Assembly (NCBI GenBank): GCA_044892525.1
Contig: CM097885.1
Span: forward strand, 265,732,001-265,796,000
From: Schmidtea polychroa
Taxonomy: Eukaryota
Direction: 5' to 3'
Length of the DNA stretch: 64,000 nucleotides
Shown here: piece after piece, positions 2,955 through 58,800 of the stretch
Numbering within the stretch: the first letter of the stretch is position 1
How the letters are laid out: each line of letters begins with the position of its first letter
The notes under the pieces: model-generated
Database searches by the model: none
Told to the model about the DNA's origin: nothing
The model's input: the letters and a program-made list of their open reading frames with translations, nothing else
Translations under genes and position numbers: made by a program

Positions 2955-4415
2955 AGTAGGTAGTTATGTGCACTCTAGATCCATGTGCANNNNNNNNNNN
3001 NNNNNNNNNNNNNNNNNNNNNNNNNNNNNNNNNNNNNNNNNNNNNNNNNNNNNNNNNNNNNNNNNNNNNNNNNNNNNNNNNNNNNNNNNNNNNNNNNNNN
3101 NNNNNNNNNNNNNNNNNNNNNNNNNNNNNNNNNNNNNNNNNNNNNNNNNNNNNNNNNNNNNNNNNNGTAATAATTTTATTTTTTGTTTTAATCATCGATT
3201 ACGTAATAATTTAAAATTTTTTTAAAACATCGATTACGTCATTGATTTTAATTTTTTATAAGAATTTTTTATGTCATTATACTTGAAATTTAATTCTCTG
3301 TTAAATGAGACTATGATGTAATCAAAATTCTGAAATTTCATTTTTAGTACACGATTTTTAAATTTACACATCTTTTTAAACAAATTGAGATATTTTCACT
3401 CAAACAATATATAGATAGAATTTTAATCTCTATAAAATGACATCAATATTTACTTCAAATTCATAATCATAACACCTTAAACAATGTATTTTTCAGCCAA
3501 CTTTTACATACACACATATTTTCAACTTTTAAAAAATACAAATTAATCATCTATACTTAACTCATAGTAAATAATTATATTAAAAGACATATTAAAAGAT
3601 GTATTAAAAACTAAACATTTATTAAAATCCCAGAGAAATTCGAGCACTATCTAATTTCCAAATCGGTGATATGACATCTTTCTCATCCATTTTATATCCC
3701 TGTATTGAAATATTTACAAACCAGCTTTCACCATCTTTATATTCAATTTCTTCAAAGGCATCATGAAAACGAGAATTTCGATTGTTGATGATTATATTTC
3801 CATTGCAACTTAGATTCTTATTGATTTTCCCCAACACTTTATTTACTGCAACAACATCTTCTTTTGTTATATGAGCAATGAAACTTGAATATTGCGACTT
3901 GATCAATTTGACTGCATTTGAGAATTTATATGGAATTTCGTCTACCAAGAAATATATCTTATGGTTATGATACATTTGTACTGGTTTCACATCATTCTTG
4001 GCATGCTTCGTCTCAGTTATTTTCTTAATTGGGCTTGTTTCTTTCAATAAATTAGAAAATGTTTTCTCACCAAAAACGTTCTTCTTGGATTGCATTTTTT
4101 AAAAATAATGACTATGATGTCATTTTATCTCTCTTTTATACTTGTGTATAACCAATCAAATGAATGCATTTGTATTGCAAACAACATGCATGTGTCATTG
4201 ACCTTCGTGTGTGACCTTTGTATGTGACCTTTACATTTGTGACCTTTGTATGTGAGTCATACATGGTTTGCATATGTATTGCAGATGTATTGCAAATTAG
4301 TTAATTAAAACGTGTACTAATTAGTGTGATATTAAAAATATTATACTAATACATGTAACATAAAAATACTATAACAACATAAAAATAGTGTACTATCACA
4401 AGTAACAATATAAAA
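2955..4415 (+). repeat. Left terminal inverted repeat (~1.45 kb; N gap 2990-3166)
   Basis: Reverse complement of 16567-18044. Carries the same 157-aa ORF and has ~19 extra nt near its inner end. Confidence 0.95.
3622..4095 (-). CDS. 157-aa TIR-encoded protein (copy 1); candidate OB-fold ssDNA-binding protein
   Basis: Translation identical to 16868-17341. The C-terminus GESWFVNISIQGYK...ISPIWKLDSARI recalls the last strands of T7 gp2.5/NCLDV-type SSBs. The function is inference. Confidence 0.8.
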   Translation of the reverse strand: MQSKKNVFGEKTFSNLLKETSPIKKITETKHAKNDVKPVQMYHNHKIYFLVDEIPYKFSNAVKLIKSQYSSFIAHITKEDVVAVNKVLGKINKNLSCNGNIIINNRNSRFHDAFEEIEYKDGESWFVNISIQGYKMDEKDVISPIWKLDSARISLGF

Positions 4416-4453
4416 ATTTTGTAACGATTAAAAATAGAATGAAAACAAATTTT

Positions 4454-7400
4454 TTATATCATAAAATTTATTAATTGACAACCATCATCATTTGGAAAAT
4501 GAGGATGATATTGCAAATCTTCATCTGGATCAACTATGGGCAGCAACATTTCTTCATCAGAATCATCAGCCATAACCATACCACCCCCCCTATAATGACC
4601 ATACGCATAACTTTTATTTTTAAGTACCCAATTGCGCTTATCGTCAGCATTAGTTAAAGCCCTCTTATTATTTTTAATACTGAAAAGTTGATGGTTTTTA
4701 CTCGTTATCCTAAATTGTGGTACTGTATAAATCTCATTATTATTATAACAATTCAGATACGACTGATGAGTTAGTCCAGTATCTTTCATTGTGACCCCCT
4801 TCGCTTTCATACATCCCTTACTACCCTTCATGCTATAACATTTTGGTCTTAAAAATATCCATTCATCATATCCAAGACCTTTGCTTTCATCTTTAAATTT
4901 CCCTATTACAGAGTCAAGGTTTTTTGAATATAATGAATGTGTTGGCTCGTAATTAGAGGTATCTAATAAATTATCCCTTATCATTGCGGGTAAAAGAGAA
5001 TTTAATTTGCAATTTTTAATTTCCAAAAAGAACGAATCTGTATCCCCAGCAACTATATTAATTTTACAATTAAATTCTATACGATATTTTTCTAAATCAA
5101 TGTACTGAAGTTGGTACATACGAAGTTTTGATAAATCCAAAACTGATTGACCAATATAACTTGGTCTATTTAAACATATTAAATCTTTTCTTAATAGAAC
5201 AGATATTAAGTCGTCATCGATTTTAGTAGTCCTTTTGAAATTAGGTTTAGAACAATATGTTAATACCTTTTGGGCTGAATTGCAAAGTCTTAAATTAATT
5301 CGTTTCTTTAGGTTTTCGACAGTCTTACCGTATAGACTGTTGTTTAATAGTTTAAAATAATTTTTATCTAATGTGTTTGTTGATGATGCCCTAAGTTGTG
5401 TGTTAGTATCTATATAATTTTTAAATATTGATGACTGTTCAAATTGTATAGCGCGATGAATTTTAGTGACCTTTACCCCAATATTTAGATAAAGCTGGAG
5501 AAGTCTCCAATGAACTACATAATTCTTTTTAGGATAGTGGGTAAGCATCAACTTCTCCACTTTGGATCCTGGTGCACAGATCTTTTCAGCTGCAACAGGG
5601 AAATCGTCAAGCTTATCATGAATCGATTCTGGAATTTCCAAATCGACTTCAACAGTATAACCGAATGTGAGTAATTCCAAGTCAACATTCATACAATCAT
5701 CCAAAATCTTATTTAATTTTATTTCATCGTTAATCCACTTAAAATTACCATCTGGTAGTTTCTGGCTAAGTGCCCAACCATATAGGTTGTTAATATCTAT
5801 ATAGAGCAACTCTGTGTTTTCATCTGATTTTACGTAATGTTTATTAACAAATGTTAATCCCCCTCGAATCCCACCCTCAAAGAAATTATAAATCTCCATG
5901 TCTTGGATCAACTCAATTGGATGATCTAAAGTCATGAGTGCAGAGTTCCATGACATACCGGGAATGCCTAAAAAGTTTAAGGGTTCCAATCTGTTATGAG
6001 CTATTGATTTTGCTCTAAACTGTTGGAAATAGTCCGCAAGTAAAAAGACATCTAATTTTAAATATATCATCATGTAATCCAAAAGTGAATTACAATTATG
6101 GTCATCCCAAATGCGCTGAGCCATATCATATTCTACTTCAGTAACACCATCCCAAATTGGAGGTAATTGGGGAGTTCCCTGAAGCACTTCTAAACTAGTT
6201 GCAAAATCATATGGGAATATGCCTTTACTATTAACAATTACTCCGTTAAATTCAGAATTAGTCAATGGAAATGTAGTTAATGTTTGTACAGCATTTTTTA
6301 AGGAATCGTTAATAAATTGACAAGAATCGATAAATTTTATAGTTAATCCATCAATTCTTGCATATAAACTTAAAAATTTTTCACTAGTTATAGGAATACA
6401 ATTAATATTCCATGATTTAAATTTACCTAAGCCAAATTTGAGAATATGATGGAGATCATATCCTCTCAAATTATGAAAAATAACTGGTAAAACCGGTCTA
6501 ATTCTTCGAGAAAGATTACAAGTTGAGCAAGCTGCACCTAAATATTTACCCGAAAAATGGTCATGATCTCTTACTGGATTTACTAAAGTTTTCTTACACA
6601 AATGACAATTTACAGCCGAAGAAAAGTTTATTTTGTCAATACTACTAAAAAACATCATTTTCCTATATCGTGTTTCAAAATATGGAGCCACTATTTGCTT
6701 ACCAATTTCTTCAAGTTCATGAAGAAACTGTTCAACACAATCCAATCCTATAAAACTTTTATAAAATTTATCCCCTGTAAAATTATTTATAAAAACAAAA
6801 CCAGCTGAGATTGGTAAATGTTTTTGATAGTATTTATTATCTTTAGGTAAAATTGCCTCAAAGTCGGCATAAATAACAAATGGAGGAGTGACAATCTTTG
6901 ACCAATTTGTAAAACTAAGATATTTATCTTCGGGTAATGTAAAGAGAGTGGTCCCTAACTGATTTTTATCACACAAACCCTTGTGTCTCATGAAAGAATT
7001 AGGATTTCGAAAACCATTTAAGCATCTCGAACACCATTTACTACAAATCCTAACAGCAGTTACACTAGAATCGTTACAATTCAAAAGTCTATCAAGATTA
7101 GTAACACCTATGTAATGATATGTGTCAAAATCTTCTAACAAAATTAAATTAATTGTTGTCCCCCCAATAACTTTAGATCGATAAATTATGTCAACATAAG
7201 GATGTTTCATAACTTCTTCAGTATTCTTAACATCATTTAATATATTTTCGTTATAAGTTAAAACATTTATCGATAAACCAGGGTTTTGGGATTCAAATTT
7301 AGAAATATTACAAAGGCGCATAGGGAGATCTGCAGGATCGAATTTTAATTCCGAAGTATTATAATTATATGGCTTAGATCTATTGGTACTAATACTATTA

Positions 7401-7932
7401 TATTTCAAAATAGATAAAATACTATATAGGAAGCATTCATCATTTGTATTTTTAACATTAACAGTACATTTTTTATTTAATAATGTTTCTGGTGTAGGAA
7501 TATATCCACGGCCAGTTAATCTGGATATTTGCGAATATTTTGTTATTATAAAACTAATATATTCAATTTTATGTATAACCCAGTTGCTTCCCTTTTCGTT
7601 AACTTTAATTATTTTTTCATTTAATAAATCAATACCATCTTCTAAGAAGGTATCACTCATGGGTCTAGCAGAATTTGAAATAACGAATGATTGAAATTCG
7701 TCATCTTTTACAAATTCCACTTTCAAACAAAATTGAATTTTTATTGAACCCATCTCGGATGAAACTTTATTTAATTCATTTATTAACTGAGTAGGGATCG
7801 AAACTGTTTTTAAATTTAAGGATGAAACATCCATTTTAACTTCTGCGTGTGTTTTATTTAAATCGAATATGGTTTCAGGTTCAAGTGAACCACCTTGTTG
7901 ATTAATAATGACTTCTGTAGAAGTTGATGTAA

Positions 7933-7995
<63 letters not shown>

Positions 7996-8413
7996 AAAGT
8001 GAATAAGAGTTAACTATCAAAGGCATGACCTCATCATCAGAGTCTGAAATAACGATAAGATCTTTTTTAACAAATTTAGAGGGTTTTAGATTAGGTAAAT
8101 TAATTTTTCTTTTATTATTTACATTAGGCTTATTATTATTATTATTAGTACTTGTAGTATCATTATTATGATTTATAGCGGGATTATAGGTATTGGAAAT
8201 ATTATTTTTTAATAAATTAATAAGGTCTTTTTTCTTTAAATTATACTGAGTTAAATGATCCCTATGTTGATGATAAAACTCCATGTATGTTACAGTCTCG
8301 GGGTTCATACAAACAGGGCAAATAAAAAAGATGGTATGATTATGGCTATGTTTGTAATATTTTTCCATTATGAAATCACAATCATCATGTAATGAACTAT
8401 TACAATAATTTTG
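4454..8413 (-). CDS. polB: Protein-primed family B DNA polymerase, main exon (start lies in or upstream of N gap 8414-8643)
   Basis: Exo motifs YADFE, HNLRGYD, DVFLLAD; pol motifs DINNLYG, KLLNNSLYGK, AGDTDS, KCY. Endonuclease VII-like CHLC...DHDH...CSTCN insert. N-terminal NDECFLYS...YHY (vOTU-like). Confidence 0.97.
7940..7995. repeat. (ATT)n microsatellite encoding poly-Asn in the PolB N-terminal region
   Basis: Directly visible; translates to a run of ~17 Asn. Confidence 0.9.
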
Positions 8414-8672
8414 NNNNNNNNNNNNNNNNNNNNNNNNNNNNNNNNNNNNNNNNNNNNNNNNNNNNNNNNNNNNNNNNNNNNNNNNNNNNNNNNNNNNNNN
8501 NNNNNNNNNNNNNNNNNNNNNNNNNNNNNNNNNNNNNNNNNNNNNNNNNNNNNNNNNNNNNNNNNNNNNNNNNNNNNNNNNNNNNNNNNNNNNNNNNNNN
8601 NNNNNNNNNNNNNNNNNNNNNNNNNNNNNNNNNNNNNNNNNNNATATTTTTATCAAAAAGGTAATTTTACTT

Positions 8673-8805
8673 AAATATATTTAACCTATTACATAATAGT
8701 TTAAACATACTTAATGCAAAATATATTTACCCTATTACGTAATAGTTTAAACATAATCAATACAAAATATATTTAACCTATTATATAATAGGTTAAATAT
8801 ATTTT
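8673..8805. repeat. Three 46-bp tandem units with palindromic cores; the third is a perfect 42-bp palindrome (8764-8805)
   Basis: Unit starts at 8673, 8719 and 8765. Core CTATTACGTAATAG at 8732-8745. Confidence 0.9.
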
Positions 8806-9004
8806 CAATCAAAATAAATTATTGATAAAAATAAATTTAACTTGTTACATAATATTTCATTATTATTATTATTATTCAAAGTACTATATTATAATTATTG
8901 TATTTAAAGTATTAATTATTATTAAAATAAAAACATTAATAAATCTTTTAATAAAACCTTATAAAAATTCATTAAAAATCTTTAAATAAAAATGAAAATC
9001 TTAC

Positions 9005-9360
9005 ATGTAACTTTTCTTTTTGATATTTTGCAATCATTTTTTCCATATGCAGTACTGCGCGCAATCAAATTGTTACCATTATTATTGTTATTTGTACTTG
9101 ACTCGTTCATATTTCGTCCATTTATAATGCATCCATTCATGTTGTTTATAATAAAATCTAAAAAGAATAAATAATTATAAATTTAATAATAATAACGAAA
9201 TACCATTTGGCATGTTTTCACTGTTATTGTTAGATCTTTTGTTGAAATTACGATTAAGACCTATAAATTATATCAATAATAATGACAAATAAATAAATAA
9301 ATAAATCTTACCATTCTTGACACTGTTTCCGCTTTGGCTTCCTTGATTATTTCTTGACAT
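9005..9360 (-). CDS. Three predicted coding exons (9360-9312, 9260-9204, 9157-9005), probably the 5' exons of polB
   Basis: ATG exon, then 57-nt and 153-nt exons, all bounded by phase-1 GT-AG introns (51 and 46 nt, then a GTAAGA donor at 9004). The joined frame is stop-free: MSRNNQGSQSGNSVKNG-LNRNFNKRSNNNSENMPND-FIINNMNG...KRKVT. Confidence 0.7.
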
Positions 9361-9680
9361 TTTGTTGAGTTTAAAATTTTAGGTATATAAAAAAGTGATG
9401 GTATATTTTTAAACATTGCTTTATATATCATAAATTGTGTAATATGTATTCACCCAATAGAAATTGAGAGTATTACATGCACACGCACTATGAAATATAA
9501 TTTACACACAATGTGAAATACTTTTCACACATTAGGAAGCAAAACTTACACACATTACAAAATAAAAATTTAACACAAACTAAGAGAACATGATTAATCA
9601 TGCATTTAAACTGCAATCTTAATGCATATGAGTAATAATAACAAAATTAATAATAATATAATTTTTAATCAAAAACTTTA

Positions 9681-10100
9681 TTAATTTTTTAAATAATCTA
9701 ACACAGCAATTAAACAATTTTTGTAAGCACAATTAGAATGATCACGGTAAGGACACAAGATATTATCAGGAAAATATTCTGATAATTGGATTGAATATTT
9801 TATTAATCTTAAATTTGGGAAATAATTTTTCAAAACTGTAAGTTTATCTTGATCAGTGACATAGAAAATTCCACTTGTATCTTCTACATCTCTCAATATA
9901 CATGTTGGACAAAACGAATCTTCACCTTCATACCATTCCAATCGATCTGAATTTTCACGTCCAGCCCAAAATGGTAAATCATTAAATAACCAATACTTTG
10001 GGCGTAAAATATTATTTACATTCATAATACATAATTCTTTAATAATTATTCCACCAGCATAATCATTATAACCTACAAAGTCAATAAAATAACAAGACAT
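9681..10100 (-). CDS. 139-aa protein; candidate degenerate DnaQ/DEDD-fold (Maelstrom-like) protein
   Basis: Clean ORF with ATG and stop. N-terminal IDFVGY...IIIKELCI resembles Exo I, and the C-terminus has CPYRDHSNCAYKN. The fold call is inference. Confidence 0.7.
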   Translation of the reverse strand: MSCYFIDFVGYNDYAGGIIIKELCIMNVNNILRPKYWLFNDLPFWAGRENSDRLEWYEGEDSFCPTCILRDVEDTSGIFYVTDQDKLTVLKNYFPNLRLIKYSIQLSEYFPDNILCPYRDHSNCAYKNCLIAVLDYLKN

Positions 10101-10132
10101 TTTTATTAATAAGATTTATTAAACTACATCGT

Positions 10133-10514
10133 TTATACATATAACATTGAATTTAGCCATGCAAGGCAATGTTGACCACATGTTTGAGTCATTGGATTTT
10201 GATAACGAATTTTATTATACAGAAGGGGTTTACCAACTGTTTGTAGTTTTGTTATCATTATATCTGGATAATAATATCCCATCGGATCAAAAACATGTAT
10301 TTTATCAGGTTTCACATATATTGCAATCCAATGTTCTCCTTCAAGATTTGATGATTGAGTATTGACGACTATAGCTTGGTTTGCGTTCAGATAGGGGATT
10401 TTATCTAATGGGAATACTCCAGTAAACTGATTCCCCAACAACATTTTTCCAATTCGATTAACCTGAATAGAACTAATCAAATAAAATTAATTATTAATTA
10501 AAAACTTACTCCAT
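10133..10514 (-). CDS. Adenain-like cysteine protease; predicted 5-nt first exon (10514-10510) and 37-nt intron (10509-10473)
   Basis: Catalytic set GEHW, FDPMG, YQ, CGQHC. The tracked ORF starts at TTG with a stop just upstream; splicing ATGGA|GTAAGT...TTAG|T gives MDSIQVNRIG in frame. Confidence 0.92.
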
Positions 10515-10579
10515 AATAAATTGTTTCCATTGTTTAATTCATTTATACTACGTTTAAACCAATACAGTTTGAAATACTT

Positions 10580-11803
10580 TCAAACCAATACTGATCGACT
10601 TGCAGTAATTTGTAATTCTCTTTCGAAAACTCCGTATACTATTACATAAACCGATTCCTCGAGTGATTTATTAAACTTTACACTCAATTTTAAATTTCCT
10701 TGTTGTGGTAATTGACTTTGATTCAAATCAAAATCTGGAGACAAAACAAATGTAAAGAATGGATATTTATCTTTAAAATCTTCAAGTGTAATCCCACAGT
10801 TCATGTTTTTATCCAAATACCCCAGATTTCTCACAATACTTTGCATATACGTTGTAGTATAATCATTTGTGTCAAAGTTTTGTGTATATGTTTCTCGATA
10901 GTCATTATTTTTGGCTAAAGTGATTGATGTAATATCCAAATGTTTAAAGATTGAGCTGGATTCCTTATATGTTCCCTTAAATTGAGATTCAGTTTGAAAT
11001 GCCACTAAAACGAAATTTGGTAATCTTTTGTCAATAAATAATTGTTCCTTGTAAAATGACGATGAACCTTTACTGATTGTAAAGTCGACAGTTTCTTTAC
11101 TTCTAATTGGATATATAGCATTTTTAGAATTTAACCCTATTTGATGCCCTGCTAAAACTGATGGTTCAACTCGAACTCTGCGAATCATTAATTTTGCTTC
11201 CAATACCTTTATCTTTGGTTCATCTGTTAGCGAATGTATACTGAATGATGATGGGTTTCTTTTCAGTGTTACATTAACATTAACTCCTGGAAGTAAATAT
11301 TTTGGTTGATCCATAAAATCTATTTGCAATGACGAACATAGGGAAACTAATTTAGAACCGGCAATTAATGCTGTTCTTTCCTTATCAGATGGAATGTAAC
11401 CCATAGGAGCCAGACAAATGTTTTTACTATCTCCATTATAATTTAAAATAGTTTCAATTAAAGCTTTTTGTGTATATCTTCCGTTTCCACCTTCAATCTT
11501 TTGACTATTGAGTCCAACAATAACATCACTAAAAAGTGTATGGAACAAGTAATTGTTAGCTTTTGCATCTGAAGTAACCGGTAATTCCTTTCCATTATTA
11601 TTTGTAACCTTTAATTTAATGTAGAGTAATGTATCATTCAAATCGAGATATTCAGTATGAGAACCAGTTATTTTGAATTCAATATCGCTTTTATTATCAA
11701 CAATTGAATTAAAGGGGAATACGTCTTCAAATGTCGCATATTCTATAACCGCCTGAGGAGTCGGTCGATCAAAAATACATAATTCAGTTTTTCCACAAAT
11801 CAT
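10580..11803 (-). CDS. Major capsid protein (double jelly-roll, Polinton PY type), 407 aa
   Basis: Polinton MCP N-terminal signature KTELCIFDRPTPQ...FP...IEFKI...YLDLNDTLLYIKLKV; size and position in the morphogenetic cluster. Confidence 0.92.
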   Translation of the reverse strand: MICGKTELCIFDRPTPQAVIEYATFEDVFPFNSIVDNKSDIEFKITGSHTEYLDLNDTLLYIKLKVTNNNGKELPVTSDAKANNYLFHTLFSDVIVGLNSQKIEGGNGRYTQKALIETILNYNGDSKNICLAPMGYIPSDKERTALIAGSKLVSLCSSLQIDFMDQPKYLLPGVNVNVTLKRNPSSFSIHSLTDEPKIKVLEAKLMIRRVRVEPSVLAGHQIGLNSKNAIYPIRSKETVDFTISKGSSSFYKEQLFIDKRLPNFVLVAFQTESQFKGTYKESSSIFKHLDITSITLAKNNDYRETYTQNFDTNDYTTTYMQSIVRNLGYLDKNMNCGITLEDFKDKYPFFTFVLSPDFDLNQSQLPQQGNLKLSVKFNKSLEESVYVIVYGVFERELQITASRSVLV

Positions 11804-12186
11804 TTTTCGAATATAGTTCCACGTCCTGTCATTCGTTTGTTTATATACCTTCGATGTTTTCTTCGCTTAGGCTGTGGTTCAGACTCTTCAGATTCTGATG
11901 CTTCATTTGATCCCATTACATTTGGTAATGAAGAAATCACATCTGGTAATGCCTCTTTGAATTCAGATATGGCATTGGATTTTAAAGATGGTAATATTTT
12001 TGCATTATTCATTATTACATCTTTAGCTGTTTTCATACCAAAATTTCCTATACGTTTAAGAATAGGAAGAGCAAACCGACCAATAGTTTTTAACCATCCG
12101 GATCCATATTGTTTGCCAACAAAATATGGTAATTCGCCACCAGTTTGACTATTGGCATAAAGAGAAACTATATCAGGATTAGACAT
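11800..12186 (-). CDS. Putative virion core/membrane-active protein (PZ-like), 128 aa
   Basis: QTGG, QYGSG and MTGRG glycine motifs, amphipathic GWLKTIGRFALPILKRIG, basic C-terminus; lies between the minor and major capsid genes. Confidence 0.75.
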   Translation of the reverse strand: MSNPDIVSLYANSQTGGELPYFVGKQYGSGWLKTIGRFALPILKRIGNFGMKTAKDVIMNNAKILPSLKSNAISEFKEALPDVISSLPNVMGSNEASESEESEPQPKRRKHRRYINKRMTGRGTIFEK

Positions 12187-13195
12187 CTTGTTTTCTAAAA
12201 TGTAAAGTTACGTGTGTTTTTGAATCGTTTGCAAATCGGATTAAATTTCCGCTATCATCGCGTATATTAATTTCTATATTGTTTATACATGTTCTCCCAA
12301 CTGGTAAATACATAGGATTTTCTATTTGTATTTGCACAACTTCATCTTGCTCATATTTCTTAATCCACACCGCTTTCAGAAGAGGTACCAGTGAATCACC
12401 AACATTTATCGGATCAATAATATCGCTATAGATGAACATTTGTTGATGATGATTAAATATTTTTCCTTTACGAACTCCACCAAATTGTTTGTCATTATAT
12501 AATTGTTTTTGTAATCCAAATGTGTTGACCAAGTTTTTATCAAATATAACTTCTTTAATGTTTTCACCGAGACTGAATTTGAAGACATTTTCATTCAGTT
12601 CAACAGACTTGAAAATATGGGGGCAATTACTTGTTAAATAGTTGGTTAAATCTTCAAGCTTCTTTATGTATAAATCATCAGTAAATGTGAAAACTGAATC
12701 TTGTAAACAATTGTACGTTAACTTCATTCTAATTACATTATTCATAATGCCATCAACATACGGCGGAATTACAATTTGAAATGTATCAGTGTGACTTATA
12801 ATTGTTGGTTCAGGAACTCCTAATCTTTTTACGCTTGCATCTTCAAATGTTATCTCGAATGGATGGTAATCGCAACAAATATTTAAAACTCCCTTGGTAA
12901 TATACATGTAACAATCATTATTTAATTCTTTTATTGTCGTTTCATCATCTTCGGGTTCAATAACATAAAAGCTGCTAACTGATTTCGATGCAATTTCTTT
13001 ATATTCAATCTTAGAATTACTGTAAAATGGAAATGTATTGTACACAAATGTGTAATCAAGCAAAGCAACTTCCCACATGTCATGCAGGTAAATGGGATTT
13101 TGTAACTCAACGATAAATTTACTAGCCTCATTATTCGGATGAATTAATGGACAGCTATTGCTTGGTAAAATAGTGAAAAAATTGTTTCTATTCAT
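12179..13195 (-). CDS. Minor capsid/penton protein (single jelly-roll, PX type), 338 aa
   Basis: FFTILPSNS...NNEASKF.V.L.NPI.L...WEVAL N-terminus and IYSDII...GDS..PLL...IEINIRD..G...LHFR C-terminus. Confidence 0.92.
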   Translation of the reverse strand: MNRNNFFTILPSNSCPLIHPNNEASKFIVELQNPIYLHDMWEVALLDYTFVYNTFPFYSNSKIEYKEIASKSVSSFYVIEPEDDETTIKELNNDCYMYITKGVLNICCDYHPFEITFEDASVKRLGVPEPTIISHTDTFQIVIPPYVDGIMNNVIRMKLTYNCLQDSVFTFTDDLYIKKLEDLTNYLTSNCPHIFKSVELNENVFKFSLGENIKEVIFDKNLVNTFGLQKQLYNDKQFGGVRKGKIFNHHQQMFIYSDIIDPINVGDSLVPLLKAVWIKKYEQDEVVQIQIENPMYLPVGRTCINNIEINIRDDSGNLIRFANDSKTHVTLHFRKQDV

Positions 13196-14211
13196 TCAAT
13201 TTGAGATGCTGATATCCAAGTTGGGTTTTGATATCCATGCCATTTGACGTAATATTGTTTATCCTTACCTTTATATTTTGATTTAAGAATTTTTTCAATT
13301 CTAAAGACAGATGGTGTCGGAATAACTTGCAGTTCCTGTTCGTAAAATTTACCCTGGATTTCATTATTATCAATATCTTTAATAACATACATAACGGGAC
13401 TCTGTTTCGTATTAATCTTCGATATTTGAAAGACTTCGTCACTCCAGTTGTTGTCAAAATTTTTAATGAATGGTGAAGCCGATATTTTACTTATTCTAAC
13501 ATGATCACCAACTTTATATTTAGGTTTCTTAATTTTTGTTACATCTTGTTGTGATAATAATATTTTCATACTATTTTTAGATGTTACATCAATCGGTCTC
13601 ATACCCTTTAGACCTCCATGTTCGGAATGATTGTAACTATGAATTATTTTCGGTAAAACATTTATCCAAGTTTTGTTACCTTGATGTACAAAATATTTTT
13701 TCAATCGATCTCTTAATGTTCTATTAAACCTTTCCACATGAGCAGCTTTGAATTGTGAAAAAACAGAGTAATGATTTATTCCCTTTAGATTTTCTTTAAC
13801 TTTGCTATTATAAAATTCTTTACCCAAATCAGTTTGTAAATTATCTGGTTTACCATTTTTAAACATTGTTTTTATTGCAACAGCCATTTCACTAGCAGAT
13901 TTGGTTTTCAATGGTATAGCTCGAGCAAATCTACTAAAGACATCAATACATGTCAAAATATATTTGTAACCCTTATTAATTTTAGAAAATGGAATCATTT
14001 CCATTAAGTCCATTTGCCATAAATCATTAATACCATATGTTTTATATGCTCTTGTGGGAAACCGTTTCAACATTGGCTTGTTTAAATTGTATGCCAGTTG
14101 ACTCGACAACCATTTTTGAGTCTCCTTTTTTGATTTGGGTACTTTTTTCTTTAACTTTTCGACTCCACCGAAACCGGCTGGATCTTTTGGGTTTGTCCAT
14201 ATCTTCTCCAT
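13192..14211 (-). CDS. int: Retrovirus-like DDE integrase with C-terminal chromodomain, 339 aa
   Basis: WQMDL (D), LQTDLGKEF (D), VERFNRTLR (E); chromodomain FRIEKIL...YYVKWHGY..PTWI. Confidence 0.97.
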   Translation of the reverse strand: MEKIWTNPKDPAGFGGVEKLKKKVPKSKKETQKWLSSQLAYNLNKPMLKRFPTRAYKTYGINDLWQMDLMEMIPFSKINKGYKYILTCIDVFSRFARAIPLKTKSASEMAVAIKTMFKNGKPDNLQTDLGKEFYNSKVKENLKGINHYSVFSQFKAAHVERFNRTLRDRLKKYFVHQGNKTWINVLPKIIHSYNHSEHGGLKGMRPIDVTSKNSMKILLSQQDVTKIKKPKYKVGDHVRISKISASPFIKNFDNNWSDEVFQISKINTKQSPVMYVIKDIDNNEIQGKFYEQELQVIPTPSVFRIEKILKSKYKGKDKQYYVKWHGYQNPTWISASQIE

Positions 14212-14309
14212 TACAACACGATGATTTAAAATTTAGAATAAGGTTTGGTAAATGTCCCATAGGTAATTGACCCATTGTTTATGATGATGATATTAAAATA
14301 ATTCAACGT

Positions 14310-14642
14310 TTATGAAGGCTCACCTAATAAACCAGATCCACCTAATAAAGATAATGCGATTGGTATCAAAGCTGATATAAACCCCCCTTTCTGTTTGTAT
14401 ATAATTTTTCGCATTATACGTTTATTTTTTGTATTTACTAACGATAAAAGTGATTTTTTATGGTTTTGCAATACAAGTTTTTTCGCTTTACTAATGTCAA
14501 CATTGCCACGCACAACATTAACAATAATTTCAAGCAAATCGTCCACAACAAATTGTGGGAATGATTGTAAAATACTTGTTCTTTTCATGAGTGGTGCTTT
14601 TATCAATGCATTAAAATATGGTATACTACGTTGTAATTTCAT
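14310..14642 (-). CDS. Conserved Polinton small core protein (PW-like), 110 aa
   Basis: LLEIIVNVVRGNV...LQNHKKSL...QKGGFISALIP pattern with a QxGG cleavage-type motif before a hydrophobic tail. Confidence 0.75.
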   Translation of the reverse strand: MKLQRSIPYFNALIKAPLMKRTSILQSFPQFVVDDLLEIIVNVVRGNVDISKAKKLVLQNHKKSLLSLVNTKNKRIMRKIIYKQKGGFISALIPIALSLLGGSGLLGEPS

Positions 14643-14675
14643 TATTGAAATTTATTTTTTATCGTTTAACTTTGT

Positions 14676-14846
14676 TTATAATTTAATCCATTTTTTAGGT
14701 GTTTTGATTGATCTTTTCTTCAACGTTTTCTTTACAGATTTCTTTACTATCTTTTTTATAGATTTCTTTACATGTTTCTTTACACGTTTCTTCTTCACTT
14801 TGACTAATTGATTATCATGTTTAATTAAAACTTTCTTGAACCCCAT
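14676..14846 (-). CDS. 56-aa Lys-rich (H1/protamine-like) protein, below the ORF-track cutoff
   Basis: MGFKKVLIKHDNQLVKVKKKRVKKHVKKSIKKIVKKSVKKTLKKRSIKTPKKWIKL*. It fills the gap between the ATPase and PW-like genes on the cassette strand. Confidence 0.75.
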   Translation of the reverse strand: MGFKKVLIKHDNQLVKVKKKRVKKHVKKSIKKIVKKSVKKTLKKRSIKTPKKWIKL

Positions 14847-14870
14847 TTTTTATTATAATAGATTCATAAT

Positions 14871-15494
14871 TTAATTTTGTTTATAAACTGTTACACCATC
14901 TTTATTAAAAATATCTGTCCTAATACGTACATCATCCATGCATTGCTGAGTAAAATCAAAGAATAAATATCCATGGGGTATTTTGGTTGCATCTTGAAAT
15001 GATTCAATTAGAAAGTTACGATTGTTTGGATATGCTTGTCTTGCAATGAAATCAATAACAGTTGCATCCCTCGGATTTTTGAAAATAACAAGATATTGAA
15101 CATTCAAGTTCCGAGTTCGATGACTCCCACCCTGATGAAACAGATTTTGTGTTATAAAAATAACTGTTACACCATGATGTCGAGATATTTTTGTAAATAA
15201 ATTATTAAAATCTTTTTCTTTGTTAGCTTCTTGATATAAATCATCAATAATAATTACATCACCCTGTTGTAATCTAGATGACCAGTTTTTATCAAATCCT
15301 TTTATTATTGTCATTTTTAATTTACAGAATTGTTCTTGCGTCAAACCATGTTCGTCATCAGCACCCCTATGCCAATATATTTTATTGAATTTTGACTTGA
15401 ACATTTTTGATTGTAATAATTTACAAACAAATAAAGTTTTACCACTACCGCTTGGACCTACAATTTGATAAACAGCATCATTTCTTAATTCCAT
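14871..15494 (-). CDS. A32/FtsK-HerA-family genome packaging ATPase, 207 aa
   Basis: Walker A GPSGSGKT, Walker B IIIDD, SRHHGVTVIFITQ, R..LN.QY. Confidence 0.96.
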   Translation of the reverse strand: MELRNDAVYQIVGPSGSGKTLFVCKLLQSKMFKSKFNKIYWHRGADDEHGLTQEQFCKLKMTIIKGFDKNWSSRLQQGDVIIIDDLYQEANKEKDFNNLFTKISRHHGVTVIFITQNLFHQGGSHRTRNLNVQYLVIFKNPRDATVIDFIARQAYPNNRNFLIESFQDATKIPHGYLFFDFTQQCMDDVRIRTDIFNKDGVTVYKQN

Positions 15495-15579
15495 TTTAAA
15501 AAATTAGTTATATATATTAATATTGTTTATATTTGTTTTAATTCATCAGTTTACTTGATGAAAAATTATTTGAAAAAAT

Positions 15580-16044
15580 ATGATTAGTAATATAAATTAT
15601 AAAGGTAGATTTGATGTATCTCATATGGAATTTCCAAAAGGTAAACCACAACAAATTGTTGACAGAAGCGGTAAACATTCAATAATATTTTTCAAGTCAG
15701 GTAAATGTCGAATAATGGGATGTAAAAAATCGATCAAAGTTGAAGATTTAAAATATGAAATCAAGGATTTACAAATTCAATCGATTACAGTTACTGCTGA
15801 TATTGAATCAAATGTTATTTTAAATGATTTATCAAAGTATATGAAATGTATTTACGAACCAGAAATATTTCCGGCATTAAGATATATAAAATACAATCCA
15901 ATGTGTGTTAACATATTCAATAGTGGTAAAGTAGTTATACTCGGTATAAAGACATTGGATTATCATTTACTTGTTTATAAAATTATTAAAGATATTAAAT
16001 CAGTAATTGATGACATGGAATTTTTAAAATTTTTCCTAAACTAA
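15580..16044 (+). CDS. TBP: TATA-binding protein (TBP)-like protein, 154 aa
   Basis: Two TBP repeats: IIFFKSGKCRIMGCK, and IQSITVT...YEPEIFPALRY...VNIFNSGKVVILGIK versus canonical IQNIVGS...YEPELFPGLIY...LIFVSGKVVLTGAK. Confidence 0.9.
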   Translation: MISNINYKGRFDVSHMEFPKGKPQQIVDRSGKHSIIFFKSGKCRIMGCKKSIKVEDLKYEIKDLQIQSITVTADIESNVILNDLSKYMKCIYEPEIFPALRYIKYNPMCVNIFNSGKVVILGIKTLDYHLLVYKIIKDIKSVIDDMEFLKFFLN

Positions 16045-16153
16045 AGTTGCAATCGTCCATGCATGAATCCAATTGGTTGATGGTGTGTATCGAAATAAGT
16101 ATATATATATATATACAATAACACTTTAATCATTTATTAAGTACTAGTTGAGA

Positions 16154-16531
16154 ATGTCAAATTTAACTGTAAATGGTATATTTTGATTATTGCTTTTTAT
16201 ATTTATAATTTTAAATGTTTTAGAAAAAATGATACAGATTCTGATTGGGAAAATGGGGGAATTATATCCGAATATTTTAAAGGATCTAATCTATTGGGCA
16301 CCAGAGATTATTCCATTCAGAATATGGATGTCTACCGGAATAGATTTGAATGTGGTTTTGTTTGATCACTTGAGGACGTTAGAAGACGATCTTGGCCCTG
16401 TTGACAGCAGCAAGCCATCAGTATGCCCATACAAATGCGAAGGATGTATTGATAGAGAGAAGAAGTATAATATATGGATATTAAGGAAAGAGTTGAGAAA
16501 AGCTCACTTTTCATTAATTGTAGATCACTAA
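16154..16531 (+). CDS. ~109-aa unknown protein, predicted two exons (16154-16175, 16224-16531)
   Basis: ATG...AAT G|GTATAT-(48 nt)-TTTTAG|AA AAA ATG gives MSNLTVNEKMIQ in the frame of tracked ORF 16190-16531; contains CPYKCEGC. Confidence 0.65.
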
Positions 16532-16703
16532 TAAATGTTTAGTTATTATAATACAGTGTTTTCTAATTTTATATTGTTACTTGTGATAGTACACTAATTT
16601 TATGTTACATGTATTAGTATAATATTTTTAATATCACACTAATTAGTACACGTTTTAATTAACTAATTTGCAATACATCTGCAATACATATGCAAACCAT
16701 GTA

Positions 16704-16856
16704 TGACTCACATACAAAGGTCACAAATGTAAAGGTCACATACAAAGGTCACACACGAAGGTCAATGACACATGCATGTTGTTTGCAATACAAATGCATT
16801 CATTTGATTGGTTATACACAAGTATAAAAGAGAGATAAAATGACATCATAGTCATT
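16704..16856 (+). promoter_or_regulatory. Predicted Pol II promoter of the TIR gene (mirrored in the left TIR on the minus strand)
   Basis: TGACTCA 16704-16710; AGGTCA x4 (16718, 16733, 16746, 16759); ATTGG 16807-16811; TATAAAAG 16823-16830; TCATT with its A at 16854, 31 nt from the TATA start; ATG at 16868. Confidence 0.65.
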
Positions 16857-16867
16857 ATTTTTAAAAA

Positions 16868-17341
16868 ATGCAATCCAAGAAGAACGTTTTTGGTGAGAAA
16901 ACATTTTCTAATTTATTGAAAGAAACAAGCCCAATTAAGAAAATAACTGAGACGAAGCATGCCAAGAATGATGTGAAACCAGTACAAATGTATCATAACC
17001 ATAAGATATATTTCTTGGTAGACGAAATTCCATATAAATTCTCAAATGCAGTCAAATTGATCAAGTCGCAATATTCAAGTTTCATTGCTCATATAACAAA
17101 AGAAGATGTTGTTGCAGTAAATAAAGTGTTGGGGAAAATCAATAAGAATCTAAGTTGCAATGGAAATATAATCATCAACAATCGAAATTCTCGTTTTCAT
17201 GATGCCTTTGAAGAAATTGAATATAAAGATGGTGAAAGCTGGTTTGTAAATATTTCAATACAGGGATATAAAATGGATGAGAAAGATGTCATATCACCGA
17301 TTTGGAAATTAGATAGTGCTCGAATTTCTCTGGGATTTTAA
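16868..17341 (+). CDS. 157-aa TIR-encoded protein (copy 2)
   Basis: Translation identical to 3622-4095. Confidence 0.8.
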   Translation: MQSKKNVFGEKTFSNLLKETSPIKKITETKHAKNDVKPVQMYHNHKIYFLVDEIPYKFSNAVKLIKSQYSSFIAHITKEDVVAVNKVLGKINKNLSCNGNIIINNRNSRFHDAFEEIEYKDGESWFVNISIQGYKMDEKDVISPIWKLDSARISLGF

Positions 17342-19871
17342 TAAATGTTTAGTTTTTAATACATCTTTTAATATGTCTTTTAATATAATTATTTACTATG
17401 AGTTAAGTATAGATGATTAATTTGTATTTTTTAAAAGTTGAAAATATGTGTGTATGTAAAAGTTGGCTGAAAAATACATTGTTTAAGGTGTTATGATTAT
17501 GAATTTGAAGTAAATATTGATGTCATTTTATAGAGATTAAAATTCTATCTATATATTGTTTGAGTGAAAATATCTCAATTTGTTTAAAAAGATGTGTAAA
17601 TTTAAAAATCGTGTACTAAAAATGAAATTTCAGAATTTTGATTACATCATAGTCTCATTTAACAGAGAATTAAATTTCAAGTATAATGACATAAAAAATT
17701 CTTATAAAAAATTAAAATCAATGACGTAATCGATGTTTTAAAAAAATTTTAAATTATTACGTAATCGATGATTAAAACAAAAAATAAAATTATTACGTAA
17801 TCGATAATTAAAACAAAAATTTAAATTTAAAAAAAAAATANNNNNNNNNNNNNNNNNNNNNNNNNNNNNNNNNNNNNNNNNNNNNNNNNNNNNNNNNNNN
17901 NNNNNNNNNNNNNNNNNNNNNNNNNNNNNNNNNNNNNNNNNNNNNNNNNNNNNNNNNNNNNNNNNNNNNNNNNNNNNNNNNNNNNNNNNNNNNNNNNNNN
18001 NNNNNNNNNTGCACATGGATCTAGAGTGCACATAACTACCTACTATTATATATTCATGCATTGCTAATAATATTTAGAATTTGTGAAAAATGTTATAATG
18101 AAAATGTTTTTTTATTAACAACCTTGCCTTGGCGACGATGCCGTCTGGAAACCCCGAGTGTGATGGGTATGAAAAATATCAAATTTTACAATTATGATAT
18201 GAATTCCAACTATGCCATGACTTCGAAATGCCAGATTTATGCAGTGAGGGAGACGATATGAATTGCGTGCTCAGAGTAGTCACTTAAAGATTACTGTAGA
18301 GACATCAGCTATGGCATCACACTCGGATTTCAAAGGGCATGGTCGCCGGGTAAATTTATTTCATTTATTGTTTAATCATTAAAAGTAGACAATTTATAAC
18401 TACATTGAACATTCTGTAACAATATTTATGTTTTCATAACATTCATTTGATAATACTGTTTCGATTTTCACATTGCTTTATTATTATTGATAGTACACTA
18501 TGCGGTGTACTATGTCTATCAGGACGGTCTAGAGAACAGTCGGTAGGGATACCGGTCGTATCTGGATGGTCCTGGTGAGCGGAAAAGCCACGACTGTATA
18601 ATCCATCGAGTGTAATGGCAAGTGTTTTCATCGAGGAGCGATAGAAGTCGTTTTTCGCGAAAGATTTTGTAAATCCAAACGTCTTCAAATCTCATAGGAT
18701 TCCAGATTTTCTTACTAGACAAATTCCAAGTGATCTAGGAAAATTCCGTTCGATAAATTTGTTTCCGGGGCAGTCGTGGAATTCACCTTCATCGAATTAT
18801 AGAAAATCATCCATCTTTACTTCTTTGATCAGACGATCATTTTCTAATCGACTCGGAGAATCTGTATAATTTACGACCTAAATATTCCCAATGTTTAGTA
18901 ACAGTATTGTTTATAGCGATAGCCCAAATTCGATGTAGATTACGATCTGTAGGCAATAGCATCTCTGAATTCGCAAAGCATCGTCAGCGATTCAGGCACG
19001 ATCGACAACGATTGAATTTCGTCGATAAACAACCAGCTAGTAGAATTCCACTGCACGATTGTAATGAGATTTTCACTAAACAAAGAAGAAGATAATATAA
19101 ACAAATTAGAGCCAACGATCAATAGAATCGATTAAATCCGTCAGACTTGTTTATCCAACAGTATATGTCAATGTAAGCTCTCGTAGTAGACTGGAATTAA
19201 GAGAATCTCCTGGCAAAATGCAAATATTTACACGTCGCAGAATGTTAAGGCTCGGAGATGAATTTACCTAAATCAACTACACATTGACAAATTGAAACGC
19301 TTAACATAAATAATGAAAATTGACGACGAATAATATATCTACTATTGAAATAATTCAACTTAGAATCTCACATGAAAAATTTAGAATTAGTTCTTATTAT
19401 TTAAGTCTAAATATTTCAAAATCTAGAATTGGTTATTATTATTCAAGTACATTCAATACATAAAAACAATTAAAAATCGATTCGTCTAATAAATTAACTA
19501 ATAATGTAGATTTCTAAAGAAAATTTAGGCAAATAATGCAATTGATCAAATTTCACCCTAGTCGTAATCCCAGTGCTATTACGATAATGATTATGATTCC
19601 GAAAATTAAAAGGTTACTGTATGAGGGAAGGAATGCCTCTAAAGTTGAAATTTATACTAGCGGTCAGTGATCGGTCTTATCTACCATAATACGACGATTC
19701 ATTTTCTCTAACTACGTCCTTTTCTATAAATGTGTGAACCCAATCTGCCGCCGAAGGGACTCCAATCCTGTTTCTCTTGCGCAGATAAAAATTCCGATAT
19801 AAAAAAACTCCAAGAACACAATGGCACGCTGAAGAAGCGAATTGAGCATTACGAATGCACATGGTTCTTTC

Positions 19872-57055: not shown

Positions 57056-58618
57056 TTACATAGGAAATGTGTACAGTGTTGTGCCAGTCTGATTTTTACA
57101 GCGTAGAGCAACATGCTGATCGAAGGCATTCTTATATCTAAAGCCATTTAAACAATGTGGGCACCAGTTACACCTTATTTGACAATTGACATTTTCATTT
57201 AAATGACAATTCATTAATTTGCCCAAGTCTGTAACGGCCGTATAGTGATATTTATCTTTATTACTCAAAAGTAATAAATAAATCGGCCTACCGTCTATAA
57301 CCTTGGAGCGATGTATAATATTAAGATGAGGGTGGTGAGCAACATAATCCTCAGAAATATCAGAATCAGAACTGGACGGATTATAAGATAAAACATAAGA
57401 TAAAATACACAAGTTTAAGTCAGGATTTTTCCTTTCGAATTTGAGAATGTTACACAGTCTCATCGGGCAATCTGTGTCTTCATCATAATTTAAAAGATGT
57501 AAAAATTCGTAATATTTGGCGGCTCTTTGATGATTACGACCTATTTCTTCTCTTTTTAAAAGTGCAAGAATGCTATACAAGAAACACTTATGGTCGTTGT
57601 TTTTAACATTAATTATTGCGTGTTTTAATTTTAATGCTGATGGGGTTTTTATATAACTATGTCCGGATAATCTACTAACGGGTGCGTATTTCGTTAAAAT
57701 AAAATCAATTTCTAAGATATTCATTACTCGCCACCCGCTTCCTAAATAAGTAAATTACTCAATCTTTTCATTTAATTTGCTCACCCCCTCGTTTATAAAG
57801 TTGTCTGTAAAAACTTGCGCATTGTTGGAAAAATTATTATCCCGGATCTCCCCATCTTTTTCAAATTTGATTAAAATTGTGAATTGAATTTTTACTTTGC
57901 CCATTTTTCTATTTCTGCTATTAACCTTTCTTCAATTTTAGATGTTAGGGCTATTTTTATCAATTTTTCGTTCCTTATATCAAACTTTAACGTTTTTCGC
58001 GATCCGTTCAAATCGGATTCTACAACAGGTTCAAACAAAGAGCCGCCTATTTGACATATGTTAAAAGACGTTGAAGCTACACATTCATCATCACTGATGA
58101 CTATCACTTCTTGTTGTGTAAAGGGTGCTTTTTGTGTGAACGATGTTGAAGCTACACATTCATCTTTGCTGATGACTATCACTTCAGGTCGCGATAATTT
58201 ATTAGGAATAGAATTTTTAATTAAAGCAGCAGGTCTTTTAATAGGATCTTTTTTAATAATATTTTTAATAGAATCTTTTATAATATTTTTTTAAATATTT
58301 TTTATATCTTTAATATCTTTTTTAATATCGTCTTTTTTAATAATATTTTTTATATCTTGTAAATTTTTTTGTAAATTTTTTTATTTATTTTTTTATTTAT
58401 TTTTTTAAATAAATCATTTTTTGGTATCGAAAATTGCCCTAAGTGATTACGGTGTTTGTTAAAAAATGCTTTATATTTTATTTTTTCGCTAGTTACGCAT
58501 TTGGGGCATTTAAAAAAGTTGATGCAGTTGAATACTTTTCGATAGTATTTCTTCATAGTACGATGACATTCATCGCTATGACCAATTGATGCTTGACAAT
58601 AATTTGGATATAGTCGAC
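57056..58618 (-). pseudogene. polB: Decayed 5' half of a divergent Polinton polB
   Basis: NYCQ..H.DEC..MKKYY...CPKC...HRNHL, VIVISDDE, QIGGS, NVKNNDHKCFLYSIL, KYHY, WCPHCLNGF, all collinear with the intact PolB N-terminus. Confidence 0.9.
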
Positions 58619-58800
58619 CTGATAAATATTAACATTAAAGTTTTAGTGTTTTTCTATATAGAAAACTATTTGTTACATCTATAAGGACGATAAATCCTTA
58701 TAGAAAATAGGTTATAATTCAATATTTGAGAATATATTAAATATTAGAGACTACATTGGATGGGGACTTATTATTATTTATATTATTATATTAAAGAGAA

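Follow-up and report, generated by a model that had tools for sequence, protein, structure and literature searches.

The protein-primed DNA polymerase of a Polinton in Schmidtea polychroa very probably has its true 5' coding start in three small exons, which lie upstream of the long polymerase frame and are joined by the host spliceosome. With equally high confidence we regard this as the plain, obligatory splicing of an inherited gene structure and not as a proven regulatory switch. The exon chain itself is real, and the first-pass interpretation is supported: in this Polinton the polymerase, and probably the protease, would start in small spliced exons. The window, to which all coordinates refer, is the whole stretch of 64,000 nucleotides that was analysed (contig CM097885.1, positions 265,732,001 to 265,796,000).

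The gene belongs to a mobile element that we delimited by its inverted repeats, flanks and gene content:

2955..18044, no strand: Polinton/Maverick element, 15,090 bp
15574..16044, plus strand: TATA-binding-protein-like gene (PF00352, E 2.4e-15)

The element runs from AG to CT, carries terminal inverted repeats (TIRs) of about 1.45 kb (arms 2955-4415 and 16567-18044, lying partly over N), and is flanked on both sides by the 6-bp target site duplication (TSD) ATTATA. It encodes a retroviral-type integrase (13192-14232; Pfam rve, E 1.3e-10, plus a chromo domain), a packaging ATPase (Pox_A32, E 3.5e-6), an adenovirus-like protease (Peptidase_C5, E 1.7e-4) and a double jelly-roll capsid candidate, which scored 0.98 to DJR-like clusters in the atlas, with recognition below the tool's threshold. 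Its protein-primed family B polymerase is 53-55% identical to P0002 and P0003, both of which carry PF03175; a Pfam search with the window's polymerase protein itself returned no polymerase match. With its TIRs, TSD, integrase, polymerase, ATPase, protease and capsid, the element is a Polinton/Maverick. Its family, here called family 1, is young and abundant, with at least 40 matches at 97-100% to the 551 bases around the leader in the 781-Mb genome (40 of 93 candidates were scored). We also note that the TBP-like protein is encoded by an element whose leader and TIR genes show ATTGG plus TATA-like words. The same 158-codon frame, with promoter-like words of its own and no Pfam match, is present in both TIRs (3622-4098, minus strand; 16865-17341, plus strand).

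Upstream of the polymerase frame, the following chain was resolved:

9421..9458, minus strand: candidate RNA polymerase II promoter, with ATTGG (reverse CCAAT) at 9458 and TATATAA at 9427
9312..9360, minus strand: leader exon 1, 49 nt, with the ATG, 16 codons plus 1 nt
9261..9311, minus strand: intron 1, 51 nt, phase 1, GTAAGA..TATAG; retention leads to a stop at 9270
9204..9260, minus strand: leader exon 2, 57 nt, symmetric phase 1-1, with an in-frame ATG at 9213
9158..9203, minus strand: intron 2, 46 nt, phase 1, GTATTT..TTTAG
9005..9157, minus strand: leader exon 3, 153 nt, symmetric phase 1-1, encoding a basic patch at its 3' end, where it also supplies the junction codon's T

The first-pass annotation had described exons of 49, 57 and 153 nt, separated by phase-1 GT-AG introns of 51 and 46 nt and followed by a third phase-1 GTAAGA donor, and its coordinates, lengths and phases were all right. 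The donor T/GTAAGA (a slash marks the splice point) closes exon 3 at 9004, all three leader donors are in phase 1, all exons are stop-free, and the GC content is 0.27-0.39 in the leader exons versus 0.11-0.13 in the introns. If any of the three introns is retained, the reading frame closes at once. In family 1, initiation at an in-frame ATG (9213, 9140 or 9110) could circumvent introns 1 and 2; the later leader exons of family 3 contain no such ATG. AT-rich DNA is full of GT and AG words, and a chain of this kind might be a chance pattern in it. A chain finder that left the phase of short introns free was run on the 1037-nt stretch 8644-9680 and on dinucleotide shuffles. It recovered such a chain in the real stretch; chains of at least three exons arose in none of 1500 shuffles and chains of at least two in 11 of 1500, and the opposite strand of the same stretch gave no chain. 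Together with a layout that is common to five families, and with an RNA-like skip that matches intron 2 (both described below), these counts make chance hardly credible as an explanation. Of 44 locus reads of family 1, 39 preserve the ATG and every splice dinucleotide; this count is weak evidence, since two places were each read twice and the copies mostly differ very little.

The remainder of the gene, and a decayed relative in the same window, are laid out as follows:

8425..9004, minus strand: predicted intron 3, about 580 nt, phase 1, its 3' end positioned from sister copies
4454..8424, minus strand: polymerase exon, with a putative start
57056..58620, minus strand: decayed second-family polymerase fragment

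The polymerase exon encodes, in order, a Cys/His-rich module, a low-complexity linker, a predicted terminal-protein-like domain, OTU-like Cys/His motifs, an exonuclease with an endonuclease-VII-like insert and, last, the polymerase. The window's own acceptor position falls in a run of N, and the exon start at 8424 was placed by position from sister copies. The visible frame (4454-8413, minus strand) comprises 1319 aa from 8413, and the open frame reported for this place is 1326 aa, so that the window frame opens just 7 codons further up, as it does in the sister copies. In 18 of the 19 other family-1 copies a phase-1 acceptor, CAG/GT, stands four codons before the NYC motif, with an in-frame stop 8 codons before NYC and no ATG upstream in frame; the one exception (L019) is without the acceptor AG. 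The first-pass annotation had predicted just such an acceptor for the gap. It had also pointed to the decayed fragment as carrying a phase-1 acceptor with an in-frame stop just upstream, and both are real: the AG lies at 58620-58619, the exon runs from 58618, and the stop is 24 nt upstream of NYC. No leader exons were found within 1.5 kb upstream of this decayed copy; other members of its family do have them. Predicted intron 3 contains three imperfect palindromic repeats of 46 bp (8673-8812), and in other families the repeats at this place are different. They are reminiscent of repeats that serve large DNA viruses as origins or enhancers.

Searches with the decayed copy (58.4-58.7 kb) and with the polymerase N-terminus yielded four further families in the genome, whose leader exons are compared with those of family 1:

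Family 1: leader exons of 49, 57 and 153 nt
Family 2: leader exons of 49, 63, 72 and 153 nt
Family 3: leader exons of 52, 84 and 42 nt
Family 4: leader exons of 58, 63 and 66 nt
Family 5: leader exons of 48 and 169 nt

The polymerases of these families are about 64-66% identical. An acceptor (YAG/GT or YAG/GC) stands exactly seven codons before the conserved Cys in all 20 loci that have a recognisable motif (21 were tried), and the leader chain is complete in 14 of the 20, the remaining six looking decayed. The last leader donor reads T/GTAAG or T/GTAGG in all five families. With the phase left free, the short introns came out in phase 1 in nine of nine cases across families 1-4, and the single short intron of family 5 is in phase 0 if the first ATG is used. 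Within families, all five differences in exon length (3, 6, 6, 39 and 27 nt) are multiples of 3, and none of the five differences in short-intron length (4, 2, 1, 2 and 1 nt) is; in one family-2 copy (L026) the first donor is gone. ATTGG is found upstream of the leader ATG in five of five families and a strict TATA word in four of five. The five families share ancestry, and such counts do not amount to five independent trials. Judged by their sequence, the leader introns are of the host's spliceosomal GT-AG type, with a GT donor, a YAG acceptor, AT-rich interiors and the size of host short introns: across the five families they measure 43-51 nt (intron 3, 342-1101 nt), and seven candidate introns of host chaperonin genes, likewise read from sequence only, are of the same style at 42-66 nt.

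Several further observations were made in the course of these comparisons. The leader peptides show no visible alignment between families; four families (1, 3, 4 and 5) have an Asn-rich leader whose end is basic, and the family-2 leader is acidic. The earlier description of the leader as Asn/Ser-rich needs this qualification, the sequence being poorly conserved. A conserved nuclear-localisation role for the leader, considered on account of the basic ends of families 1, 3, 4 and 5, was rejected, because the family-2 end is acidic and the polymerase linker has a basic patch of its own. A comparison of L071 and L072 with L023, L026 and L070 shows that family-4 leaders stand behind two different promoter regions, one of them common with family 2, which suggests an exchange of modules between families; exon 3 of L071 contains a tRNA-like insertion as well. 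Finally, the chaperonin region 311-455 occurs alone in a repeated element with frames of up to 1377 codons (G000:C1:74023328 and about 15 similar rows), possibly a mobile element that has taken up a chaperonin domain.

The residue at the splice junction ties the leader to the polymerase most directly. The final leader exon of each family contributes a T, and the first two bases of the polymerase exon are GT (in two loci, GC); joined, they form a Cys codon, where the unspliced genomic frame reads Gly. A query with the first 72 residues found 22 matches among 1.84 billion proteins, with ENA and JGI assemblies as the sources of the 10 that were checked. These relatives carry the equivalent Cys inside one open frame: all 14 testable relatives, and all 17 of their units, have it 5-7 residues ahead of the second Cys, the other eight of the 22 having no testable unit (a later start called, the motif absent, or, as with P0017, an unrelated protein). 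Because the Cys is kept in all 14, the residue made by splicing would be a conserved part of the domain, and nothing speaks more strongly for a junction of exon 3 with the polymerase exon than this conservation. Several relatives start M-x-C (e.g. P0011, P0012 and P0016), and the sequences suggest that relatives do without a long leader. Metagenome contigs yielded four distant relatives; in the one inspected (L097, 34%), a single open frame of 1713 codons includes both the ATG and the zinc fingers. The viral contigs searched yielded no relative, and among shorter transcript-derived proteins the same 72-residue query confirmed none of seven candidates. The Cys/His module matched no convincing Pfam or atlas family. 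It is present in tandem repeats at the polymerase N-terminus of P0005, P0013, P0014, P0020 and P0023.

Taken together, the sister acceptors, the four further families and the junction Cys support the first-pass claim of an intron-containing Polinton polymerase whose true start lies upstream. We additionally compared the contigs of four sequencing runs over 8000-16560, one of which (X1) is only guessed to be RNA and another (X2) is DNA-like; the other two (X6 and X7) contain almost none of the element. None of the runs listed for this sequence is recorded as RNA. In a 496-nt contig of X1 (record 2), 9157 and 9205 are separated by a single letter, which corresponds to the removal of intron 2 plus a change in the last base of exon 2. 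This joint is seen in one contig, with a short side of 30 letters against a bridging rule of 31. DNA-like X2 keeps intron 2 (record 10) and covers 8895-9533 without a gap, and no intron-2-less copy was found in genome G000. Five of the six differences listed for record 2 were found in older genomic copies, and its base at 9204 is absent from all 44 locus reads. Intron 1 is still present in record 2, as is a candidate 37-nt intron of the protease in a further contig (record 3). Of intron 3, the bin 8572-8857 is the only one of 30 without X1 depth, an absence of cover that proves nothing. Record 1 of X1 runs 41 letters beyond 8413, that is, 11 exon letters plus 30, the length expected for crossing into exon 3; this is a hint only, as a genomic path into a repeat is possible. 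RNA support for the leader splicing is thus partial.

No joint of the leader to the polymerase is among the X1 joints listed, and removal of intron 2 does not in itself link the two. At a distance of 12-14 residues downstream of the NYC-type Cys stands a conserved Met, from which P0002 and P0003 were called, and a shorter polymerase product from this internal Met is possible. On these grounds the leader could be a separate small spliced gene ending at 8984, with the polymerase starting at the internal Met by way of another promoter or a non-coding splice. We consider that reading improbable. It gives no account of the conserved C/H codons upstream of the internal Met, of an acceptor whose position and phase are fixed in all 20 loci, of the T that invariably precedes the last donor, or of the corresponding Cys carried by each of the 14 relatives. 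Less probable still, and by a good deal, is the splicing of the polymerase exon to a distant exon, after the manner of an adenovirus-like shared leader, or to a trans-spliced leader, the nearby exons being incidental. Any phase-1 donor would suit the acceptor, and X1 does contain the long-range joints 10516-15007 and 10760-15080. These joints, however, carry 6-8 extra letters, the one whose ends are shown reads GG..TT, which is not an intron end, and similar long skips in DNA-like X2 make them look like deleted copies. Moreover, the Cys needs a T before the donor, and exon 3, or its counterpart, is the sole leader exon ending in T in each family.

The protease of the element appears to be organised in a comparable way:

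10510..10514, minus strand: candidate 5-nt micro-exon (ATG GA), the protease start, conserved in families 1, 3, 4 and 5
10473..10509, minus strand: candidate protease intron, 37 nt, phase 2

Ahead of its conserved start, the protease frame lacks an ATG. In families 1, 3, 4 and 5, ATGGA or ATGAA before GTAAG, a short intron, and the acceptor TAG/TTCT(A or G)TTCAG recur, and the spliced protein is predicted to start M-D/N-S-I/V-Q; the protease gene probably takes its ATG from the 5-nt micro-exon. Elsewhere in the element, an ORF at 16187-16531 (plus strand) has a candidate 22-nt ATG exon within 16154-16223, with a 48-nt phase-1 intron at 16176-16223.

The predicted dependence of both genes on splicing raises the question of regulation. 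Intron 3 might be removed only in some cells or states, and otherwise a leader-only peptide of 93 aa would be made; such a switch would add to the explanation preferred here, and we hold it to be unlikely. Read-through of the last donor meets a stop within 7-26 codons in all five families, intron 3 is long where the others are minimal, X1 retains two short introns, the protease is apparently splice-dependent as well, and ATTAAA is present at 8952 inside intron 3. Early stops and an ATTAAA are, however, expected at 13% GC, the read-through tails and leader peptides are unconserved between families, and retention in contigs can reflect pre-mRNA or DNA. That the lineage has put its replication polyprotein and its maturation protease behind introns, with host splicing as an on/off gate, is accordingly a tentative idea that we rather doubt. 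If it were true, an unspliced polymerase would lose a predicted zinc-ligand Cys and just the short leader peptide would be made, and the splicing state would decide in which cells the element replicates or forms particles.

Under obligatory splicing, the reading that we prefer, host RNA polymerase II would start near 9395 and three phase-1 introns would then be removed. The resulting mRNA would encode a protein of about 1409 aa: a low-complexity leader of 86 aa, the Cys split by intron 3 (T/GT), and the rest. The junction Cys would complete the pattern C-x6-C-x4-H-x3-C ahead of a C2H2-like finger, a module predicted to be likely zinc-binding, and downstream of it lie the predicted terminal-protein, OTU-protease and polymerase domains. 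Splicing would have to deliver the start codon and the junction Cys, the leader peptide being seemingly a replaceable tail, and symmetric phase-1 exons would let exon number and length drift with the frame kept. The linker (about 8030-8060, minus strand) contains the hydrophobic-acidic motif IVISDSDDE (IIVISEDDD, VITISDDE and IVISDDE in other families), which we take to resemble a SUMO-interaction motif; a similar word occurs in the region of family 2's second leader exon.

A structure model was built for residues 1-500 of a family-3 copy, counted from the unspliced Gly; its overall confidence is low (mean pLDDT 52.8, pTM 0.31). It contains a folded Cys/His module at about 14-60 (pLDDT about 70-79), then a disordered linker, and at about 220-323 four strands and two helices (pLDDT about 80) with a Gly-Ser loop before the last strand. 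The best fold matches were adintovirus/MELD and bidnavirus-like polymerase proteins; there was no sequence match to solved structures and no PDB fold match at E <= 0.001. As modelled, the domain at about 220-323 fits the terminal-protein description in the accessible part of 10.1101/2024.03.18.585575, where the OTU-like domain is also proposed to cut behind the terminal protein. After such a cut, the protein attached to the genome ends would still carry both the leader and the Cys/His module.

In the available portions of two reports (PMC8097293 and 10.1101/2022.07.12.499685), the core genes of intact Mavericks are described as intronless. This is a descriptive trait and not a classification criterion, and the Polinton in the window appears to depart from it. 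Our literature searches found no spliced Polinton polymerase, including in the portions available of 10.1101/2023.08.22.554363, PMC12220804, 10.1101/697771, 10.1101/2024.03.25.586562, 10.1101/2024.03.18.585575, PMC5803895, 10.1101/2024.01.15.575659 and PMC8363768; Repbase, Kapitonov and Jurka 2006, or supplements may describe such exons. The part seen of PMC8532177 concerns piRNA control only.

These results bear on annotation practice as well as on the biology of the elements. Polinton and adintovirus polymerases are annotated from open frames, and their real N-termini can therefore be missed; as one example, we point to P0002 and P0003, which are called from the internal Met. The picture of intronless core genes is corrected for at least one lineage. 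Expression would depend on nuclear transcription and on host machinery suited to minimal introns, and the spread of such elements from one host to another may be restricted as a result. In gene expression, Polintons and adenoviruses come closer together, a resemblance that does not show common ancestry of the splicing.

The closest known system is the Polinton/adintovirus TP-vOTU-pPolB polyprotein of Krupovic et al., which, from the part available of 10.1101/2024.03.18.585575, shares with the present element the TIRs, the 6-bp TSD and the core genes, as well as the terminal-protein domain of four strands and two helices, which is predicted here. The element described here differs from theirs in that the polymerase, and probably the protease, need splicing. 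Intron-type sequences within Polinton-like elements are also a feature of dinoflagellates, where, according to the available portion of 10.1101/2025.03.18.643946, introners in Maverick-Polinton-like elements are mostly transposon insertions after integration. Unlike introners, the last intron of the present gene looks inherited, since its position and phase are common to families whose polymerases have diverged to the identity given above.

In the Drosophila P element, the key enzyme needs the last (third) intron removed, and a short product is made if that intron is kept. The present element resembles it as a transposon whose key enzyme needs the removal of a last intron, with a short product otherwise. 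Tissue-specific splicing and a repressor product are features of the P element, and the Polinton is likened to it by layout alone.

The adenovirus terminal protein precursor (pTP) and Pol both take their first residues from a small upstream exon, a parallel that the first-pass annotation had drawn. It holds as a working analogy, in that a protein-primed replication gene is expressed by splicing in both, and goes no further, in that the TP-like domain is here predicted to be fused to the polymerase. Nor was a shared leader of adenovirus type found, the TP-like domain being predicted inside the polymerase frame and the protease using its own micro-exon. In the sections available of PMC9499273 and PMC7851563, adenovirus pTP and DNA polymerase come from alternatively spliced E2B RNA. 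There, two separate proteins are made; here, an adjacent multi-exon leader would add 55-135 residues to one polyprotein, and an intron splits the codon of a conserved Cys.
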